A stretch of DNA of 64,000 bases from a virus: IMG/VR virus record IMGVR_UViG_3300009182_000002, positions 1 through 64,000 of that record. One strand, written 5' to 3'. The notes under the pieces are model-generated. The model made no database searches. It saw only the letters and a list, made by a program, of their open reading frames with translations, and was not told the DNA's origin. Position 1 is the first letter of the stretch. Each line of letters opens with the position of its first letter. Positions 31,352-47,411 of the stretch are shown here, one piece after another. Both the position numbers and the translations under genes were made by a program.

Positions 31352-32168
31352 CGGTGATCTCCTTTTGCCCCTCTACCGCGTCGAACTGGGTGCTGAGATT
31401 GCGTCTGCGTGCGTAGGACCGGGAGAACCGACCAAGATTCCCCTCCGACTTCTGGTTCTCCTCGCTCGTGGTATCCCAGAACGACTTCCCGGCAGGCTCG
31501 GATCGACGGTCGTCGCGGTGGTGGATGTCTGCGTAGTCCTCAGCAGAGGCCTCTTTGGACGCCAGAGTGTCGGCATCCCACTGGGAACTGGTGCCAACCT
31601 GCTCCGCAGCCTCCGAAGGACCGGTTCCGGAGTCCCAGAGGCTCTGCCTCTTGTCGAGGACGGGGAGGTTCTCTGCGTGGTGCCCTAGGGCATGGATCAG
31701 TGCCCGGGAGCGCTCATTGCGGCTGGTGCCACTGCGGACAGTCACATGCAGCCGTGAGACCGGCAATTGCTCCTCAGAACCGTCCTTGAGCCGGTAACTG
31801 GCTGACTCCGTGTACTTTGCTGAAGGGTGAGGCTGTTCAGCCTCCATTCCCGGCTTGAACCAGCCGCTGACACCGGATTCGTTCACAGCGTCACTGGTGT
31901 TCCCTGCACGCACGATGTCGAGGTTTCGCAGGTCAGAGGCAGGGACAGTGGACCTAGCCACGTCCTCTTTCATCTGAGCGACCTCTTCAGGGTCACCGGA
32001 GAGCCTCTTGGTGCCCTCGATGGCCTCGCTAACCTCCCGCATCCGCTCAGGGTTGTATCCCCTCGGATACCTCTCGGAGTCCTGCATCCAGAAAGCAGGA
32101 CGTGCGAGCATCCCCTGATCCTCACCCGGGGCGAAGTAAGGCTCAGCAGCGTTCTTCTTCCGAGGCAA
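31338..32168 (-). CDS. zincin-like protein with degenerate HExxH
   Basis: ALIHALGHH..KEASAEDYA; TAGGAG RBS. Confidence 0.55.
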   Translation of the reverse strand: MPRKKNAAEPYFAPGEDQGMLARPAFWMQDSERYPRGYNPERMREVSEAIEGTKRLSGDPEEVAQMKEDVARSTVPASDLRNLDIVRAGNTSDAVNESGVSGWFKPGMEAEQPHPSAKYTESASYRLKDGSEEQLPVSRLHVTVRSGTSRNERSRALIHALGHHAENLPVLDKRQSLWDSGTGPSEAAEQVGTSSQWDADTLASKEASAEDYADIHHRDDRRSEPAGKSFWDTTSEENQKSEGNLGRFSRSYARRRNLSTQFDAVEGQKEITDGNS

Positions 32169-32949
32169 GACAGGGCTCCTAGATAACGGAAGCCCTCCGC
32201 CACTCCAGTATCCAAGGGGACTGACACCCTAGAAAGCGTCAAATGTACAAGTTTTCCTTTTCCCCCTTAGCAACGTTGTAAAAGGGGATGTGACAAGATT
32301 TAGGAACTTTAGTTTTGGGTTCCATAGCAACGGGAGGGCCCAGATGCTCCAAGCAACGCTTGCTAGGGCCTTAGCAATTATTTTAAAGATCGCTCGTCTC
32401 AACGAAGATTCTTGATCGAGAGCGAGTACAGCCCTCCCGCTCCCAAGTTCGGCACGCCATTTGGGCAACTGCCTGAGATTTCAAGGGCCACCTATGCCTG
32501 AGCACTGGCCCCGCGCTGGTGGCGCAAGCGCTTAAGGGTGGGCGGGTCGCTCTGGCTGGCAAGCCGTTAGCCACGCTAAGCAACGGAGCCCTGCCCGGAG
32601 GGCTTCGAGTCGCTCGAGCCCGCTCCGGGCCACTGCCTCGCGACGGGGTGGCGGCGTGGCGGTGCGGGCAGGCTTCGGGATGGTGGTCCGGTGCTGTGAG
32701 TAACCAGCAGCGCGCTGGTGGTGCTGGAGCGCTCACTGGCACCGGGCGAGGGGTCCGGCTTGCCAAGGTCTCAGAATGGCGCTGTGGGCTTGCTAGGGCC
32801 ATCCCAGCGTTGAGCCGGTCCGGTCTCAGCCCTTTCACAGCAGCGTGTTCCAGCGTTGGAAACTTCTTTGGTAACGGTTTGGTAACGAGGGCTGTTTACG
32901 GGAATGAACGCCTTGGCAACCGCGTTGTTGATCAAGCAACACGATCGAC

Positions 32950-33395
32950 ACGGCACCGCGCAGCGCAGGCCCCCGGCTCTCGGGGCGAGCCCCTCGCGAT
33001 GGCCACCACAGCGGGTGAGCGAGCGACCCTCGTACCTCCCAGCGCCACGACCACGGGCTGGGGAAGGGCGACGGTTAAGCAGCCGGACCCGTCCAAGGAG
33101 ACAACTCTGTCGTGCTTCGGTGCGGCAGACGGTCAACAGGGGCACGCCCCGGTCTCCAGATGAATCCGTTGACGTGTCCGGACCATCTGCCGGTCTACCC
33201 GTGAGTGACCGCGCCAAGAACAACCACGGGCCTACTGCATTGCCCATGAAGTGACCTGTGAAGCCCTTGTGGCTTCGCCGGGATTCCCGCCGTGTGCGGG
33301 GAGTGCCTGACACCCCAACGGAATGGCGGGGTGACCATGGGAGGCCAACAACTGTGGTGGGAGCGGGGTGGCCACGCCGCCCCGTTCCCCCACCA
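32950..33395 (+). ncRNA. candidate large structured ncRNA
   Basis: nested helices, a cUUCGg tetraloop, G-U pairs favouring the plus strand, no credible ORF. Confidence 0.55.
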
Positions 33396-33396
33396 A

Positions 33397-33469
33397 GAGC
33401 CGCTGATGAACTGGTCATCGACGGTCGGCAGGCCACCGACCTGACGGGGTTCGACTCCCCGGTGGCTCA
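33397..33469 (+). ncRNA. tRNA-like cloverleaf (non-canonical anticodon loop)
   Basis: acceptor GAGCCGC/GTGGCTC+A; D arm GATGA/TCATC; stem GGTCGG/CCGACC with loop CAGGCCA; T arm CGGGG-TTCGACT-CCCCG. Confidence 0.75.
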
Positions 33470-33504
33470 CGCTCCATACCCACAACCAACCACTAGGAGA
33501 GCCC

Positions 33505-33747
33505 ATGTCCATTCCCACAACCAACCACGACGACCTGACCACGATGCTGGACGGGTCAGTGCAGGTCACCCTCACCCGCGCGGCAGTCGTTGACCTGCTG
33601 AGCGCGCTGGGACGTTCACTCACTGAGAACACCGGCGAGGTTCACATCGTCCTTGACGTGTGCGAACACCGCGCGTGGTTCGACGTGCGCGGTACGTCTG
33701 GCCGCATCGGCGGGGCAGTCACGCACTGCTACTGCGTCATCAACTAG
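33505..33747 (+). CDS. early hypothetical protein
   Basis: 80 aa, CTAGGAG RBS. Confidence 0.7.
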   Translation: MSIPTTNHDDLTTMLDGSVQVTLTRAAVVDLLSALGRSLTENTGEVHIVLDVCEHRAWFDVRGTSGRIGGAVTHCYCVIN

Positions 33748-33806
33748 GCGAAACAGGGCCATCGCGGCCCTGTCCACGGGGTTGGCATCCCCGTGCTGAC
33801 GAGCCT
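33746..33806 (+). ncRNA. hammerhead ribozyme, type II
   Basis: AGGC-GAAA-CAGGGCC(atcgc)GGCCCTG-TC-CACGGGG(ttggcat)CCCCGTG-CTGACGA-GCCT: complete core and three stems. Confidence 0.92.
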
Positions 33807-33831
33807 GCCACCAACCTAGGAGAGTGAAGCC

Positions 33832-35280
33832 TTGACAACTGGACTGCCCACATTCGCCGCGCTGATTCGCAGCGCGCCGGGTCCTGACAACCGCTGGTGC
33901 GAGGTCCTCATCGTGAGGTCCTTCGACACCTTCTCACCGCTGCACGTTCCCGGCGTTGGACCAGCGCCGCTGTTCTACATCCGGAACACCGGGGGCGGTC
34001 GGGGACCGTCCAACGCATGGGTCGCCGTCACCGACGTTCCTGCTCAGGAGCGCGCTGCATGGTGCGGCAATGACCCTCTCGTCGTGCCGCTCACCACGCA
34101 CGACGTGACCGCAGTTGCTAGCGCTCGCAACTTGCCGCCCAAGTCGCTGCTCACGCGGCTCCAGTCGCGCATCGACCGCGTGCCGCTCAATCAAGCCGTT
34201 GGGCTAACCATTGGCAACGTCGTTGACGCTCTGGTGCAGGCCACCGACGTGTTCGCCACGGTCGTGCCTGCTGCTCCCAAGGTCGCCCCGGCTCAGGTCG
34301 TGGTGGCCGCGCCGGTCATTCCTCAGGTGTCGGCCATCCCGGCTCCCGTGCTGACAGTGCCGGTTGCCAGCACGGCACCGGTTGCCAGCGCTGGTCCCGT
34401 GGTCGTGCTTGACGACGACCAGCCCGACTCCGACGACGGCTCCGTCACGGTCGTCGTGCAGGACGGCGCGTGCCGCAAGGCCATCGTCCTGCCGCCGTCG
34501 TTCGCTGACTCGTACATCCACCGTGCGGTGTTCGGAGTCGATGACTTCACGGTGCTGGATGAGGCACGGGCCAAGGGCGACAGCGTCGGGCTGTACGGCC
34601 CCACGGGCTCTGCCAAGACCACCGTTGCCAAGGCTTACGCGGCAGCGCGCGGTCTCCCGTATGTGCAGGTCTCAGGCACCGCGACGATGGAAGAGTCGCG
34701 GATGTTCGGTCGCTGGATCGACCTTGGCCAGTGGCAGGACGGCGTCGTCAGCGAGGTGGTCCGCTACGGCGGTCTACTCATCCTTGACGAGATCAACATG
34801 CTCCCGCCGAACATCAGCGCGAGCCTGTTCCCGCTGCTTCGCGAGCGGGTCCTCACCCTGCACGACAAGGACGGCGAGACCATCACCGCCCACCCGTCGC
34901 TGATCGTCATCGCGACGTGGAACCCGAACTACTCCGGTACGCGCGAACTGAACGCCGCGCTCGCCAACCGGTTCGGGGTGCAGGTTGAGTGGGGCTACGA
35001 CGACCGTGTTGAGAAGGCGCTTGGCATCTGCAACAGCCTTCGCGCTGCTGCTGGTCGCCTTCGTGCCAGCGAGGTCAAGGGCGAGGTCAGCGCCCCCTGC
35101 CCGACCAACGCGCTGGTTGACTTCCAGCACTACGCCGGTCGGCTGGGGCTGGACTTCGCGGTTGGCAACTTCGTCGCCCGGTACCACGACGATGTTGAGC
35201 GCAAGGCCGTGCAGGCCGTGTTCGACACCTTCCGTTCCAGCATCGAAAACGAGTTGGGGCTGGCTCAGGCAACCGTCTGA
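33832..35280 (+). CDS. MoxR/CbbQ/CobS-like AAA+ ATPase
   Basis: GPTGSAKT, LLILDEIN, ATWNPNYSGTRELNAALANRF. Confidence 0.88.
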   Translation: MTTGLPTFAALIRSAPGPDNRWCEVLIVRSFDTFSPLHVPGVGPAPLFYIRNTGGGRGPSNAWVAVTDVPAQERAAWCGNDPLVVPLTTHDVTAVASARNLPPKSLLTRLQSRIDRVPLNQAVGLTIGNVVDALVQATDVFATVVPAAPKVAPAQVVVAAPVIPQVSAIPAPVLTVPVASTAPVASAGPVVVLDDDQPDSDDGSVTVVVQDGACRKAIVLPPSFADSYIHRAVFGVDDFTVLDEARAKGDSVGLYGPTGSAKTTVAKAYAAARGLPYVQVSGTATMEESRMFGRWIDLGQWQDGVVSEVVRYGGLLILDEINMLPPNISASLFPLLRERVLTLHDKDGETITAHPSLIVIATWNPNYSGTRELNAALANRFGVQVEWGYDDRVEKALGICNSLRAAAGRLRASEVKGEVSAPCPTNALVDFQHYAGRLGLDFAVGNFVARYHDDVERKAVQAVFDTFRSSIENELGLAQATV

Positions 35281-35344
35281 GCCAGCACCAGCACCACCTA
35301 GCAAGCCCTACCAACCACTACCAACCTCTAGGAGAGCGATCACC

Positions 35345-36271
35345 TTGGCAATCACTTCACCCCTCACCGCCGACCGCTTGCTTGGCCCCGGCGCTGAACG
35401 TGGCGAGCGGCTCGCACGCCTCGCCGCCATCTTCACCAAGTCCAACAGCATCCTGTCCGGTCAGTCGGTCAAGGTGCGTATTGAGACCAACGACTGGGCT
35501 TGCCCACCGGCCCCGGCATGGTCCGATGGCCAGAACATCTGGTTCAAGGGCAGCGACATTCGTGACGCTGACTTCGACTCCATCGTCAACCTGTACGGTC
35601 TCAACTACCACGAACTGGGCCACATCCTGTGGACACCCCGTCAGTCGCACCCGCTGGCGACTTGGGCTTGGCGCAACCGTCACTGGTCCACGATGAACCT
35701 CTTGGAAGACCAGCGCATCGAAACGGCGATGACCCGCCGCTGGCCTTCGACGGCACCGTGGCTCACCGCGTGCGTCCTGCGCTGGGTGCTGGCCGACCCC
35801 AAGACCCTCAGCACGTCCTACCTGCTGCTGCGTGGTCGTCGCTTCCTCCCGGCTGACGTGCGCGGACTGTCACGTCAGGCCTTCGAGCGTCAGGACCTGC
35901 TCCCTGAGGTTGACCGCATCGTTGACGCCTACCGGGAACTGCGCTTCCCAGAGAAGCCCAACCTGCGCCGCGTATCGGAGCGCAACCTGTACGACCGTGC
36001 TCAGGCGCTGATCACCGACTACAGCGCGCTGATTGCCAGCCTTAACAACCAGCCCACGTCGTCGCCTAACCACGGCAACGACGAGACATCACCGGTAACC
36101 AACGGCTACCCAGCGCCTCACGATCCCAATGAGGCCAACACCGACGACCAGTACGACGACGAGCCCCAGCCCGGTCAGGGTAGCGACGGGGACCAGAACG
36201 ACCAGCACGACGACACCAACGACAGCGGCGCGGGCACCCCGTGCTGCTCCTGCGACGGAGGCAGCCACTGA
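35345..36271 (+). CDS. CobT/vWA-partner N-terminal metallopeptidase-like protein
   Basis: AWSDG, NYHELGHIL, NLLEDQRIE; TTG start after CTAGGAG. Confidence 0.8.
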   Translation: MAITSPLTADRLLGPGAERGERLARLAAIFTKSNSILSGQSVKVRIETNDWACPPAPAWSDGQNIWFKGSDIRDADFDSIVNLYGLNYHELGHILWTPRQSHPLATWAWRNRHWSTMNLLEDQRIETAMTRRWPSTAPWLTACVLRWVLADPKTLSTSYLLLRGRRFLPADVRGLSRQAFERQDLLPEVDRIVDAYRELRFPEKPNLRRVSERNLYDRAQALITDYSALIASLNNQPTSSPNHGNDETSPVTNGYPAPHDPNEANTDDQYDDEPQPGQGSDGDQNDQHDDTNDSGAGTPCCSCDGGSH

Positions 36272-37464
36272 TGAACGACGACACCATGCCCAACACAAGC
36301 GCCTGCTCCTGCGGTTGCCACGGTCCTGCCGCTGGCAACGAGCCTGCCAACGACCAGCCGGGTGGCTCTGGCAACGAGCCGGGTCAGCCCCAGCCCGGCA
36401 ACGAGCCGGGTCGGCCCGGCAACGGCGACCAGCCCGGCGACCAGCCCGGCGAGGGCGAGGGTCAGGGCGAGGGCGACCAGCCCGGTGAGTCCGACGGCGG
36501 CGGCGCGAACGGCGGCGCTGGCTCCGACGGCGAGACCGGGCTGGACGGCGGCGAGGCCAACGGTGCTGGCACCGGGGTTACCAACGCCCCCGACATTGCC
36601 AAGGCCTTGCAAGACGCTGCTAGCAAGGCTCTCGACAACATCACCAACGACGTCGATATCGCTGGCGAGGCCAGCAGCGCTGTCAACGCTGTTGTCAAGG
36701 GCGGCGGTCACGTCCAGATCCTGCGCGACTCCCGCTTCGACACCTTCGCCCCCAGCGACGAGGCTCGCCTCGCTGAGCGCCGCGCGGTGCGGGAGTTCAA
36801 CACCCTCCGCGCAGACGCTGAGGAGGGCTGGGACCGCGCCCGTCCGCAGGGTCGGCTGAACGTCGGTCGCTACATCTCTAGCAACGGGGACCTTGACGTG
36901 GCCTTCGACCAGTGGCGTGACCGCAAGGGTGACGCCTCCGACCTTGAGGTTGTGCTACTGCTGGACGACTCAATGTCCATGGCTTCCTACCGCGTGGTCA
37001 GCGCGGAGGCCATGTGGGTACTCAAGCGTGGCCTTGACGCCATCGGTGCCAACACCACGGTGGTCATGTTCCACTCCGAGTCCCGCGTCCTGTACAAGCC
37101 GACCGACAAGGCTGAGGCGGGTCGCCTCCGCTGCTCAACTGAGAGCGGCGGCACTGACCCCAGCGAGGGCATCGCTCAGGCGGCGCGCATCTTCGCCGGG
37201 AGCCGCAAGGGTCAGAAGGTGCTGATCACCATCACCGATGGCGACTACTGGGGTGAGTCTGTCCCTGCCAACTGCGACTACAACATTGACGACATTGTCA
37301 AGGCCATGACCAACAGCGGCGTCGTCACTGCTCAGGTCCTGTTCAACCACGCGAGCGAGCAGACTCACGGGCACGCGATCAGCACTCAGGTCTCGCAGGT
37401 TGAGGAGATCGCGTCCTTTGCCAAGGAACTTGTCAAGGCTGCTATCAAGTCTCGCCAGCGCTAG
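36271..37464 (+). CDS. von Willebrand factor A domain protein
   Basis: GRLNVGR, LLLDDSMSM (MIDAS), GGTDP, ITITDGD; GGAGG RBS and TGATG coupling. Confidence 0.88.
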   Translation: MNDDTMPNTSACSCGCHGPAAGNEPANDQPGGSGNEPGQPQPGNEPGRPGNGDQPGDQPGEGEGQGEGDQPGESDGGGANGGAGSDGETGLDGGEANGAGTGVTNAPDIAKALQDAASKALDNITNDVDIAGEASSAVNAVVKGGGHVQILRDSRFDTFAPSDEARLAERRAVREFNTLRADAEEGWDRARPQGRLNVGRYISSNGDLDVAFDQWRDRKGDASDLEVVLLLDDSMSMASYRVVSAEAMWVLKRGLDAIGANTTVVMFHSESRVLYKPTDKAEAGRLRCSTESGGTDPSEGIAQAARIFAGSRKGQKVLITITDGDYWGESVPANCDYNIDDIVKAMTNSGVVTAQVLFNHASEQTHGHAISTQVSQVEEIASFAKELVKAAIKSRQR

Positions 37465-37473
37465 CAACGGGCT

Positions 37474-37506
37474 AACCCAGCAGGCCCCAAAGGGGCCTGC
37501 TGGGTT
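37474..37506 (+). terminator. 15 bp hairpin after the vWA gene
   Basis: aacccagcaggcccc-aaa-ggggcctgctgggtt. Confidence 0.7.
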
Positions 37507-37534
37507 GCTTCCCAACACAAGCAATTACCAACCC

Positions 37535-37578
37535 CAGCGCGACTAGCAGCCACCCCGGTGCAAGGCCGGGGCGCGCAC
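37535..37578 (+). repeat. 44 bp tRNA-minihelix-like element, copy 1
   Basis: identical to 38595-38638. Confidence 0.85.
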
Positions 37579-37610
37579 TGGTGCGACGAGCGCACCTAGC
37601 AACGAGAGGA

Positions 37611-37808
37611 ATGCCAATGCCCGAGATCAACGCCACCTACACCGTCGATGTTGACGGCACCCTTCACATCACACACCGCGAGTGCGGCGTCGTTCAAGAA
37701 GTCAAGCCGGTGCGCGAGTTCGCTGACGGCACCTGCTCGTTCGGTTCCGATGCCGACGTGTGCCTCGCCTGCGAGAACGAGGGTCGCCCGGCGACCCTCA
37801 ACTACTAG
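37611..37808 (+). CDS. small zinc-binding protein
   Basis: HREC..CLAC; GAGAGGA RBS. Confidence 0.55.
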   Translation: MPMPEINATYTVDVDGTLHITHRECGVVQEVKPVREFADGTCSFGSDADVCLACENEGRPATLNY

Positions 37809-37953
37809 GGGGCTGGCTCATGCTGCACAGCGCACGATCCCGAGCCCACCACGGCCATCGCGGTTGCTACTGCTGCGACTGGCCCGTAAGCAACCGCACA
37901 CTTCGCCAGCGCGAGAGGCGCGCTTGGCAACGACAGATTGAGAGGGAGTACGC

Positions 37954-38199
37954 ATGACCCACATCCCGGCGCAGGACGCCAACAACGCAACCGTCATCCG
38001 GTTGCTTGAGGAGATCGCCTCGCTTCAAGCAACCATCGACTCGCTCATCCCACGCGAGGACCCCGAGGTTCGGGCCGAGCGTTACCGCACCACGGCGAGC
38101 GACCGCTTCCAGTACAGCGACGGCGCTGACGCTGTCGGCTTCCATCTTGAGCGCATGTCCGCGCCCGACTACGACCCCTACTACGACGAGAGGTACTGA
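37954..38199 (+). CDS. hypothetical protein
   Basis: GGGAG RBS, ATGA overlap. Confidence 0.65.
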   Translation: MTHIPAQDANNATVIRLLEEIASLQATIDSLIPREDPEVRAERYRTTASDRFQYSDGADAVGFHLERMSAPDYDPYYDERY

Positions 38200-38201
38200 C
38201 C

Positions 38202-38513
38202 ATGACCACGATCACCATCACCATCCCGACCGACCTCGCAGACGCCATCGCAGATGCGCTGACCAAGTGCGTGCTGCGGGCCAGCGCTGACGCTGAACGG
38301 ACTGTCGCAGGGCCAGCGTACGAGCGAGCAGAAGAGGCAACCCGGTACTTCGGGGACGCGCTCGTCGCCTTCAACTACGCCCGCGACATTGACCCTCTAG
38401 CGCGAGAGTGCGGGGCATGCGGTGCGGAGTCAGGCGAGGACTGCCGGTGGCACTGCACCGCGCGGCCCGACGATGACAACGTGCCCAACACAAGCAATCT
38501 CATCGACGCTTAG
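38202..38513 (+). CDS. hypothetical protein with C-terminal zinc finger
   Basis: CGACGAESGEDCRWHC. Confidence 0.65.
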   Translation: MTTITITIPTDLADAIADALTKCVLRASADAERTVAGPAYERAEEATRYFGDALVAFNYARDIDPLARECGACGAESGEDCRWHCTARPDDDNVPNTSNLIDA

Positions 38514-38594
38514 GGCTTGGCTTACCCACTGCGGTTGTCCAAGAATGTTGTCGGAGGCAGGAATACCAAGATCAACTAAGGGTGTTGCCACACT

Positions 38595-38638
38595 CAGCGC
38601 GACTAGCAGCCACCCCGGTGCAAGGCCGGGGCGCGCAC
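38595..38638 (+). repeat. 44 bp tRNA-minihelix-like element, copy 2
   Basis: identical to 37535-37578. Confidence 0.85.
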
Positions 38639-38683
38639 GCTCACGACGAACCGTTCGTCGTATGTAGCCAAAGGAGGGCCAAC

Positions 38684-38968
38684 ATGGCCGAGTACATCTT
38701 CATTGAGGAAGAACCGCAGGTTAGTTCAGGACCACGCCTCAACCACCAGCAGGTCACGCTCGCGCGTCGTGTGCGTGACGCAGGCGGCTGGGTTGCCGTC
38801 ATTCGCTTCGACAAGAAGTCGGCGGCGAACGTCGCGGCCTCCCGCATCCGTCGCGGCAACGCGGCGTCGTGGGCGTACGTCGGCACCTTCGACACCAAGG
38901 TCGGCCAGCGCCCCGGCGAGTCCGAGTGGACCGTCTACGCGCTCTACACCGGAGAGGCAAGCAACTGA
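38684..38968 (+). CDS. hypothetical protein, paralogue of 40284-40616
   Basis: AAAGGAGG RBS; GWVAV..A.RI..G..A.W..VGTFD..V..VYA. Confidence 0.75.
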   Translation: MAEYIFIEEEPQVSSGPRLNHQQVTLARRVRDAGGWVAVIRFDKKSAANVAASRIRRGNAASWAYVGTFDTKVGQRPGESEWTVYALYTGEASN

Positions 38969-39489
38969 TGACTACCACCAACCAACCCACCGTTGACGAG
39001 CAGCGCGCACAGGTCTTGGCTGACAACCCCGGCCTTGACAAGGCGTTGACAACCAACCACCACATCGTTGAGGACATCTCCGCCCGCTTCGCTGCGACCG
39101 GTCGCCTTTCCGAGAAGCAGATCGCGCTCGTCTTCAAACTCGCCAAGCAAGACGCTGCCGCTAAGCAGCGTGAGGCTGAGCGCGAGGTAGCAGACATGCT
39201 GGTCCGCGAGTCTGGCATCACCATCACCCCCGGCAAGCAGGTCATCTTCGGAAGCGTCGTGTCTCTCAACCTGAAGGACAGCGGCTTCGGCCCGACGTGG
39301 AAGATGATCGTTGAGCACCCCAGCGGTCTGAAGTACTGGGGCACCGTCCCTAGCAACCTCGTCGGTGCTCTTGCCAAGGGTGATCAAGTTGAGTTCACCG
39401 CAACCGTGTCGGTCTCCGACAACGATCCAAAACCCATCTTCGGGTTCTACAAGCGCCCGACCAACGCCGCACTTATCAAGTCGGCCTGA
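38968..39489 (+). CDS. hypothetical protein, C-terminal OB-fold-like
   Basis: GRLSEKQIA, KYWGTVP, FGFYKRPT. Confidence 0.7.
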   Translation: MTTTNQPTVDEQRAQVLADNPGLDKALTTNHHIVEDISARFAATGRLSEKQIALVFKLAKQDAAAKQREAEREVADMLVRESGITITPGKQVIFGSVVSLNLKDSGFGPTWKMIVEHPSGLKYWGTVPSNLVGALAKGDQVEFTATVSVSDNDPKPIFGFYKRPTNAALIKSA

Positions 39490-45848: not shown

Positions 45849-47411
45849 CTAACTGCCGATAGATCCATCGATGATTCGGTTGGTCTGCTCGGCGTCCAAA
45901 CCACCGTTGGGAAGATCCCGAAGCGAGGCGGCTCGGTCTCCAAACAACGCACTCAACACCCCACCTGCGGTCTGCCTCTCGACCGTCATACGAACGAACT
46001 CGTTGTTGCTTTCGAGGTCTTTGAGGATCTTTACCAACTTGAAAAGCCGGTCTATTTCTAGACCGGTGTTCGGATCTGGGTATCCGCCGTTCAATTCCTC
46101 GCTGAACCGGGCGAAAGCAACCCTTTGCCCTTGCATTTCAACGATTGCATTGAGGAGAGACCGCAACTGCTCCTTGGTCTTGACCTCCACCGGGAGACCG
46201 AACGCGCACATCGATTCAGGCTTGTAGGCAGGGCAGTTGCTAGCCACGAAACAGGTGTCGCACTGGCGCAGCGACTGCGAGTTCGACTGCATGACCGGCA
46301 CATCGCGGAGGACTTGATTGCCGTTCTCATCGGTGTCAACAATCGTCTTGTACTGAACCCCCAGCACCGGCAAAGTAGCGGTCTCCTCGGGAGTTCGGGG
46401 CTCCGGAAGTTTCCGCATCGAAGCATCCCTGTTGGCAACTACGGGAGGGGGGTTTTCCTGACTTTGGCTTGGTACCCCATTTCCGCTCTTAGCAACTAAG
46501 AAGTCATTGCTAGAGGCGTTGCTAACGAGGTCCGGGTCTGACTTATAAAACAATTGCTCATCAGATTCGGGGACAGACTCCGATCCGAAGTTCTTCTTTC
46601 GCGGGTCTTCCATCTGCATCTCCATCTGTTGGTATGACCAGATCGCCAGTTTGGTGACCTCGTTGGGGTCGTCGTTCACGACCTTTCCGAAGTCAATCCC
46701 GGCCTTCTCGCAGACCGACCGATACCTCATTCGCGCTTGGTCCTTCATCCGCTGTGGGTAGCGAACGAGGCGAGTGCCGTCCCAGACGATGGTCTCGCCA
46801 CGACGCATCGGAGAGAGCCATGACAGCGTGCTGACGGTCTCCCACCGGATGGCTCTCAAGTTGTCTGGCTTGGCGATGGAAAGCCCGTGAAAAGACGTCT
46901 TGTGCTGTATCGCGAGGGCGTTGGTCCTGCTTGCAAGCGTGCTGTCAGACTCCACAGTCTCGTACGGGATGGCGATGTGTGAATACCGATCCGCGAGCGC
47001 GAAGAGAGCCGGGTAGCCCAGCGAGGATTCCCAAATGGGCCAGAACAATTCCTCACCCAACTCGGCCCAGAACAACTCGCGCTGCTCCTTGAGCCACGCA
47101 ACTCCAAGCGGCGGGCAGACCAGTTCGGTCGCTCCGGAGATGCGATCCCCGTTCTGAACTACGAAGTCCTGATACTCGGCGGCGTAGTCTTCCAACTCAG
47201 CAACAGACAAGCCAGCCTTGGCAACCTGCTGCGAACCGGCATCGAGGTAGACGCGCACGTCGTCGGGGAACCGTCCGGCAAACAAGTAAGGCTTGTTCTT
47301 GGGCAGTCCGCGCTTCCACAGTCGAAAGAACGACACTCCGACATCTTTTACGCCCATGTCGGTTAGCAAGATGCGATTGCTCGGGACCTCGGCACCGTCA
47401 AAGACCAGCAT
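45849..47411 (-). CDS. TGT/DpdA-like TIM-barrel fused to a Cys-cluster helical domain
   Basis: VYLDAGS, FHGL, STLSWLSPMRRGET; C-terminal CDTC..C..CAF. Confidence 0.5.
   Translation of the reverse strand: MLVFDGAEVPSNRILLTDMGVKDVGVSFFRLWKRGLPKNKPYLFAGRFPDDVRVYLDAGSQQVAKAGLSVAELEDYAAEYQDFVVQNGDRISGATELVCPPLGVAWLKEQRELFWAELGEELFWPIWESSLGYPALFALADRYSHIAIPYETVESDSTLASRTNALAIQHKTSFHGLSIAKPDNLRAIRWETVSTLSWLSPMRRGETIVWDGTRLVRYPQRMKDQARMRYRSVCEKAGIDFGKVVNDDPNEVTKLAIWSYQQMEMQMEDPRKKNFGSESVPESDEQLFYKSDPDLVSNASSNDFLVAKSGNGVPSQSQENPPPVVANRDASMRKLPEPRTPEETATLPVLGVQYKTIVDTDENGNQVLRDVPVMQSNSQSLRQCDTCFVASNCPAYKPESMCAFGLPVEVKTKEQLRSLLNAIVEMQGQRVAFARFSEELNGGYPDPNTGLEIDRLFKLVKILKDLESNNEFVRMTVERQTAGGVLSALFGDRAASLRDLPNGGLDAEQTNRIIDGSIGS

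Follow-up and report, generated by a model that had tools for sequence, protein, structure and literature searches.

The 447 nt at positions 32950-33396 of the DNA analysed here are best read as a processed, structured leader, the downstream part of the long untranslated leader of a rightward MoxR/vWA operon, and we hold this reading with moderate confidence. Transcription of the stretch as a phage operon leader is probable, and the data support the reality of local RNA elements in its 3' two-thirds. They do not support a single closed ornate domain of ~360 nt, the architecture put forward in the original prediction of a non-coding RNA at this site.

Genomic setting of the candidate leader

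The window is the 64,000-nt stretch of DNA that was analysed. It begins at position 1 of an IMG/VR virus record of 97,729 bp that has direct terminal repeats. The record carries phage genes for portal, terminase and major head proteins, for ribonucleotide reductase and for a queuine-tRNA-ribosyltransferase-like protein. This last gene (45849-47411) adjoins the ribonucleotide reductase gene, is kept in all 4 of the related phage genomes compared, and may encode a DpdA-type 7-deazaguanine DNA modification enzyme. The candidate leader lies at a strand switch, where a leftward gene block ends at 32168 and a rightward block of ~9 kb begins at 33505, starting with an 80-aa gene followed by genes for a MoxR-type AAA+ ATPase, a peptidase-like protein and a vWA protein. 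The GC content is 64-68% over the initial 6 kb of the rightward block (33001-39000), compared to ~58% in the rest of the phage. Two intergenic copies of a 65-nt direct repeat (37525-37589 and 38585-38649; 86% identical, with an identical core) lie 1060 nt apart within the same block. The features of the locus are as follows.

32169-33504, no strand assigned: divergence region, 1.3 kb of non-coding DNA (flat codon-position GC; ORFs without Pfam, PHROG or database relatives)
32950-33396, plus strand: candidate RNA, for which the best reading is the 3' portion of a leader transcript (from fold z, Rfam and a TANNNT scan)
33354-33393, plus strand: 18-bp hairpin (stem of 4 + 14 bp with one bulge and two G-U pairs; loop of 3 nt) lacking a U tract (z -6.24 on the plus strand, -3.68 on the minus strand)
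33397-33469, plus strand: tRNA-like element (Ala-GGC according to ARAGORN; cloverleaf kept in the relative L044)
33505-33747, plus strand: conserved 80-aa gene, with the tRNA-like element before it and the hammerhead after it (coding periodicity; relatives)
33746-33813, plus strand: type II hammerhead ribozyme (Rfam score 42.1 bits; gathering score 37)
33832-35280, plus strand: MoxR-type AAA+ ATPase, the first large gene of the rightward block (Pfam AAA_5, 6e-22)

A conserved hairpin, tRNA-like element and hammerhead at the 3' end

One close relative of the locus was found, on two contigs: L012, a metagenome contig, and L044, which is binned with an Actinomycetota MAG. L044 begins at window position 33353 and L012 at 33365, so that both assemblies break at the start of the 18-bp hairpin or within it, and the two contigs cover only this terminal hairpin and what lies downstream. 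The comparative evidence thus spans 33353 onward, both contigs starting downstream of 32950-33352. Two independent breaks at a GC hairpin suggest either a drop in coverage there or strain-level variability just upstream. These two short contigs come from Delaware estuary samples and encode the closest relative of the MoxR protein, with 62% identity.

The 18-bp hairpin is predicted to form with a probability above 0.96 (partition function), and 0.4% of 1000 dinucleotide shuffles contain a hairpin matching its uninterrupted 14-bp core. Its region is identical to L044 at 45 of 46 positions, the sole change being in the loop, while the 80-aa protein has only 29% identity with its L044 counterpart; we counted this difference as a sign of selection on the hairpin, in support of the leader reading. 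An intrinsic terminator was considered for the hairpin and rejected, since there is no U run and the stem is followed by CAAG and then by the tRNA-like element; a scan of 32000-34000 gave no terminator-like site. The hairpin remains near-invariant beside stems that have diverged and been compensated, showing that its sequence is constrained beyond pairing alone. Such constancy next to freely changing stems suggests sequence-specific recognition and points to a sequence-specific partner, and the hairpin may be the binding site of a sequence-specific factor.

That the stretch abuts a tRNA-like element had been part of the original prediction, and the cloverleaf is upheld by the alignment with L044. 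All 23 of its pairs are kept there (100% paired), with 8 double compensatory changes, which lie in the acceptor and D stems; in the anticodon and T arms the two sequences do not differ. Because the acceptor and D stems covary, the element must be transcribed. ARAGORN calls the window copy and does not call that of L044. The anticodon loop reads CAGGCCA, with no U33 and with C37, and the element is probably not a decoding tRNA. It has no match to the Rfam tRNA model (RF00005, for which 29 bits or more are needed), and its best Rfam score is 20.1 bits for tRNA-Sec, against a requirement of 47. Close to its apex, the preceding hairpin contains GGUGGCC, to which the loop segment GGCCACC is complementary.

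Downstream, the 80-aa gene has relatives with 84% and 65% identity (P0021 and P0022) on ENA contigs of ~600 bp, and belongs to no Pfam or PHROG family. The hammerhead that follows it is also found in L012 (452-519), where it scores 41.9 bits, again above the gathering score, and the alignment with the relative shows four compensatory double changes in its two hairpin-capped stems. Scores above gathering in both phages, together with covarying stems, show that the hammerhead is conserved and functional and that its motif is not due to chance. More generally, the interleaving of invariant blocks with diverged, compensated stems indicates selection on RNA and not recent transfer. By this comparative evidence, we take the RNA elements flanking the stretch (hairpin, tRNA-like element and hammerhead) to be real.

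Searches for further copies were made at several levels. With blastn, nothing was found among the INPHARED phages. In the viral contigs, exact and degenerate DNA patterns gave either nothing or, in one scan, three chance matches within coding regions; L023-L025, which matched 'GGCAGGCCACC...GGGGTTCGA', were rejected for their location in coding regions. In the genome collection, L044 was the only real match to the DNA patterns, the other 27 being GC-rich chance matches. Locus searches anchored on proteins (MoxR, a MoxR alignment, the 276-aa protein of the left neighbour and an alignment of the 80-aa protein) returned only L012 and L044 as close loci, and with these patterns and anchors no further copy of the element was found in the viral, metagenome and genome collections. 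The MAG containing L044 has no other piece of it, and among 401 genomes of the MAG's class, a relative of the 80-aa gene occurs only on the L044 contig of that MAG, the DNA matches being at chance level. A covariance model of the hairpin and the tRNA-like element (R1) found no second copy in the phage itself; its other match there (23.9 bits, E 0.006) is the hairpin on the opposite strand.

We also compared related phages, whose capsid protein is ~80% identical and whose GC content is only 44-46%. They retain the order MoxR, peptidase, vWA and RNR, and show no nucleotide similarity to the stretch. Neither a hammerhead nor a tRNA-like element was found upstream of their MoxR genes, and the R1 model matched nothing in them. 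As far as these sequences indicate, the module is specific to the high-GC lineage. Since the related phages keep the MoxR block without the element, the latter is not essential to this type of operon.

A proposed processed leader as the best explanation

On the plus strand, the nearest upstream TANNNT hexamers are at 32310 and 32379, and there are none between 32385 and 33520. A start of the sigma-A type would therefore lie upstream of the whole stretch, and plus-strand transcription would then run through 32950-33396. The resulting leader would carry local hairpins, i.e., the cUUCGg hairpin, the one at 33258 and, above all, the invariant 18-bp hairpin (33354-33393). Host RNase P would be expected to cut at the 5' end of the tRNA-like element, between 33396 and 33397, and cleavage would free a leader whose 3' end, made up of the hairpin and CAA, is expected to withstand 3' exonucleases. 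The hammerhead would then part the 80-aa gene from the MoxR mRNA. We infer that such a leader would act in cis, as a processing and stability module with a putative stabilising role. If this is correct, host processing by RNase P at a tRNA mimic and self-cleavage by a hammerhead would split one and the same transcript, a combination that is, to our knowledge, undocumented for phages.

Several points were counted against the leader. A scan of the 32000-34000 region detected no sigma-70-like promoter near the stretch or the hairpin, and a phage-specific promoter just 5' of the hairpin is possible. The 5' half (32950-33100) is without structural signal: the fold of 32851-33150 on the plus strand is average (z +0.2), and 32976-33100 has a z of +0.09. 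Finally, the element is missing from related phages that keep the MoxR block.

Possible DNA-level control at the strand switch

The strongest competing explanation, to our minds a rather unlikely one, is that the stretch is mainly a DNA-level control region with operators, promoters and perhaps a replication origin, so that only the last ~45 nt and the tRNA-like element would have a role as RNA. All other pairings are then taken as ordinary for sequence of 65% GC, and the background-level stability of the fold (see below) fits this account. Its location also does, since the peak of the cumulative GC skew coincides with the strand-switch point. Related phages have gene-free gaps of 0.35-1.5 kb at the equivalent strand switch, with sequence that is unrelated to the stretch and that has just short patches in common from one gap to another. 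In addition, there are repeated words: the genome has two exact copies of the 13-mer GCTTGCTAGGGCC and no others (32358 and 32788, at a distance of 430 nt), and the 10-mer TTTGGTAACG forms a tandem pair at 32867/32878. Both repeats are candidate operator or promoter words; however, they lie 5' of 32950 and thus outside the stretch. The asymmetry of folding between plus and minus strands and the G-U pairs likewise argue for RNA over DNA palindromes, and the negative promoter scan around the hairpin also counts against control at the DNA level.

Local hairpins and the case for a large structured RNA

The original prediction was of a discrete RNA with an ornate fold. In its present form, this explanation is that of a novel, trans-acting, large structured RNA of ~450 nt or more, with a 3' end formed by RNase P in a manner resembling MALAT1/mascRNA, and we consider it unlikely. 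In its favour, 1.3 kb of non-coding DNA is unusual for a compact phage genome, no known family matches, and the invariant terminal hairpin is followed directly by the validated tRNA-like element. The 447 nt also fold better than shuffles, with a bias for the plus strand (z = -3.0, as opposed to -1.2 for the minus strand). However, when folding energy was regressed on composition over 436 same-size windows of the phage genome, the z for the plus strand was -1.55 and 7% of the windows folded better, so that by this measure the overall stability is within the genome's own background. Among windows of 300 nt, 33151-33450 on the plus strand ranks 24th of 1300. The 5' third without signal and the failure to detect the element in related phages count against a large RNA as well.

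We next consider the individual pairings. Every motif quoted in the prediction is found where it had been placed, including CCACCACAG at 33003-33011, CTGTGGTGG at 33352-33360, CATGGGAGGCC at 33336-33346 and copies of GTGACC at 33205, 33251 and 33331. The structures predicted upstream of the terminal hairpin are the following.

33098-33157, plus strand: possible three-way junction in which GAGAC/GUCUC encloses two hairpins, cUUCGg and GGGG/CCCC (the MFE structure when these 60 nt are folded alone)
33106-33129, plus strand: 10-bp hairpin with a cUUCGg tetraloop and three G-U pairs (pairing probability 0.88, partition function)
33157-33189, plus strand: CAGAUG/CAUCUG hairpin with an inner UCCG/CGGA stem (probability about 0.88)
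33192-33346, plus strand: predicted multi-branch domain closed by GGUCU.CCCGUG / CAUGGGAGGCC (closing helix probability 0.99)
33258-33278, plus strand: 8-bp hairpin with a 5-nt loop (probability 0.96; z -4.35, with boundaries chosen after folding)

The 10-bp cUUCGg hairpin, which had been noticed for its three G-U pairs, is both present and above chance: a UUCG-capped stem of at least 8 bp occurs in 0 of 1000 dinucleotide shuffles. Together with the 18-bp hairpin, it exceeds chance, and it is among the observations that favour a large RNA. The 8-bp hairpin at 33258-33278 was likewise counted as above chance by its z. The surrounding junction (33098-33157) has a z of -1.78 on the plus and +0.55 on the minus strand, and in the full-length fold it gives way to pairing with 32981-32994. 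The CAGATG/CATCTG pairing (33157-33189) is present and predicted to form, as proposed, but its stability is not significant (z -1.6). Several sub-elements (33098-33157, 33198-33341 and the 18-bp hairpin) fold better on the plus than on the minus strand, in agreement with the proposed plus-strand RNA; for 33198-33341, the values are z -2.76 and -1.31, respectively. These sub-element z values are generous because the boundaries were picked after folding, and compared to the genome background the domain at 33192-33346 reaches a z of only about -1.6 by a crude, length-scaled estimate.

The long-range features fared less well. The ~360-nt domain was to be closed by a 9-bp helix between 33003-33011 and 33352-33360, which has a pairing probability of 0 since its 3' strand belongs to the 18-bp hairpin; moreover, a perfect inverted repeat of at least 9 nt is present in 53% of dinucleotide shuffles. 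The second long-range pairing, between 33229-33248 and 33336-33346, is replaced in the folding model by pairing of 33192-33203 with 33336-33346 (p 0.99). Likewise, the three copies of GTGACC are at chance level, since 87% of shuffles have an equal or greater number of hexamers that occur three times or more. Chance-level closing helix and hexamers both weigh against a large RNA.

No family assignment is possible for the stretch. At gathering thresholds, Rfam matches in the window are confined to two tRNAs at 28.3-28.5 kb and the type II hammerhead at 33746-33813, and Rfam 15 has no match at gathering score inside 32950-33396. A permissive scan of 32200-33600 (E up to 10) gave only noise, namely miRNA models on the GC hairpin with 15-20 bits where 66-88 are required. 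Riboswitches, ribozymes, introns, RNase P RNA, tmRNA and 6S RNA were rejected for 32950-33396 given the lack of an Rfam match. GOLLD and ROOL were rejected as well, neither having a covariance-model match in the window or at E up to 10 on 32200-33600; the earlier judgement that the stretch is neither of the two is therefore borne out by this cmscan-type check, in which no family matched. A new class of large structured phage RNA, with a 3' end made by RNase P at a dedicated, non-decoding tRNA mimic and a cap formed by the invariant hairpin, as a counterpart of MALAT1/mascRNA in a bacterial virus, seems quite unlikely to us. The length of such an RNA would be 450 nt, or as much as ~1 kb with a transcription start near 32390. 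It would be notable, but the claim rests on pairings that are explained by chance.

Coding potential

A decayed or unrecognised protein-coding gene is a very improbable explanation of the stretch, even though long ORFs cross it (32519-33163 and 32904-33254 on the plus strand, 32771-33436 on the minus strand) and the minus-strand ORF was called by one gene caller on another assembly (P0019). Across 32169-33504, GC content stays flat from one codon position to the next, and it is only from 33505 on that a coding-type pattern appears, with approximately 0.77 GC at position 3 and 0.45 at position 2. None of the long ORFs across 32950-33395 has a Pfam or PHROG family, the 116-aa ORF at 32904-33254 being examined by PHROGs and periodicity. 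Among 5.8 billion proteins, the sole match of the 221-aa minus-strand ORF is its copy in that other assembly, and the 214-aa plus-strand ORF (32519-33163) has 0 matches among 1.84 billion representatives. Furthermore, one frame stays open across the hairpin and the tRNA-like element, and because of indels it is read in different frames in L044. The stretch 32950-33395 is non-coding DNA, as had been proposed: it has no GC3 periodicity, the ORFs that cross it are without relatives, and no Rfam family matches it.

Comparison with known systems

The processed leader that we favour can be set beside several known systems. In eukaryotes, the 3' ends of MALAT1 and MEN-beta are formed at the tRNA-like element mascRNA, and a triple helix protects them. 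The phage locus is similar in that a tRNA-like fold, a possible substrate of RNase P, comes directly after an upstream RNA, and cutting there would leave a structured, protected 3' end. It differs from MALAT1 in that the sequence is unrelated, the predicted protection is a plain 18-bp hairpin and no triple helix, and cleavage is putative; the Rfam mascRNA-menRNA model gives 17.6 bits, compared to a gathering score of 42.5. In the early mRNA of phage T7, RNase III hairpin sites separate the units of a polycistronic RNA. Here too, a long hairpin stands between transcript units and would leave a stable 3' stem. Unlike the T7 sites, it has 18 bp, a 3-nt loop, no internal loop and a near-invariant sequence, and its cleavage is putative.

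GOLLD and ROOL are large, ornate RNAs of phages and prophages that have been visualised by cryo-EM (PMC12286853). The locus shares with them a large non-coding phage stretch beside a tRNA-type element, whereas the stretch is shorter, lacks a covariance-model match and has a multi-helix architecture that is predicted only. A further comparison is with the hammerheads of phages, for which Perreault et al. (2011; PMC3088659) proposed a role in dividing long transcripts into mRNAs of gene length. As in that case, a type II hammerhead lies at a gene boundary of a phage operon; in contrast to it, the flanked gene is bounded upstream by a tRNA-like element in place of a second hammerhead, and a long leader precedes it.
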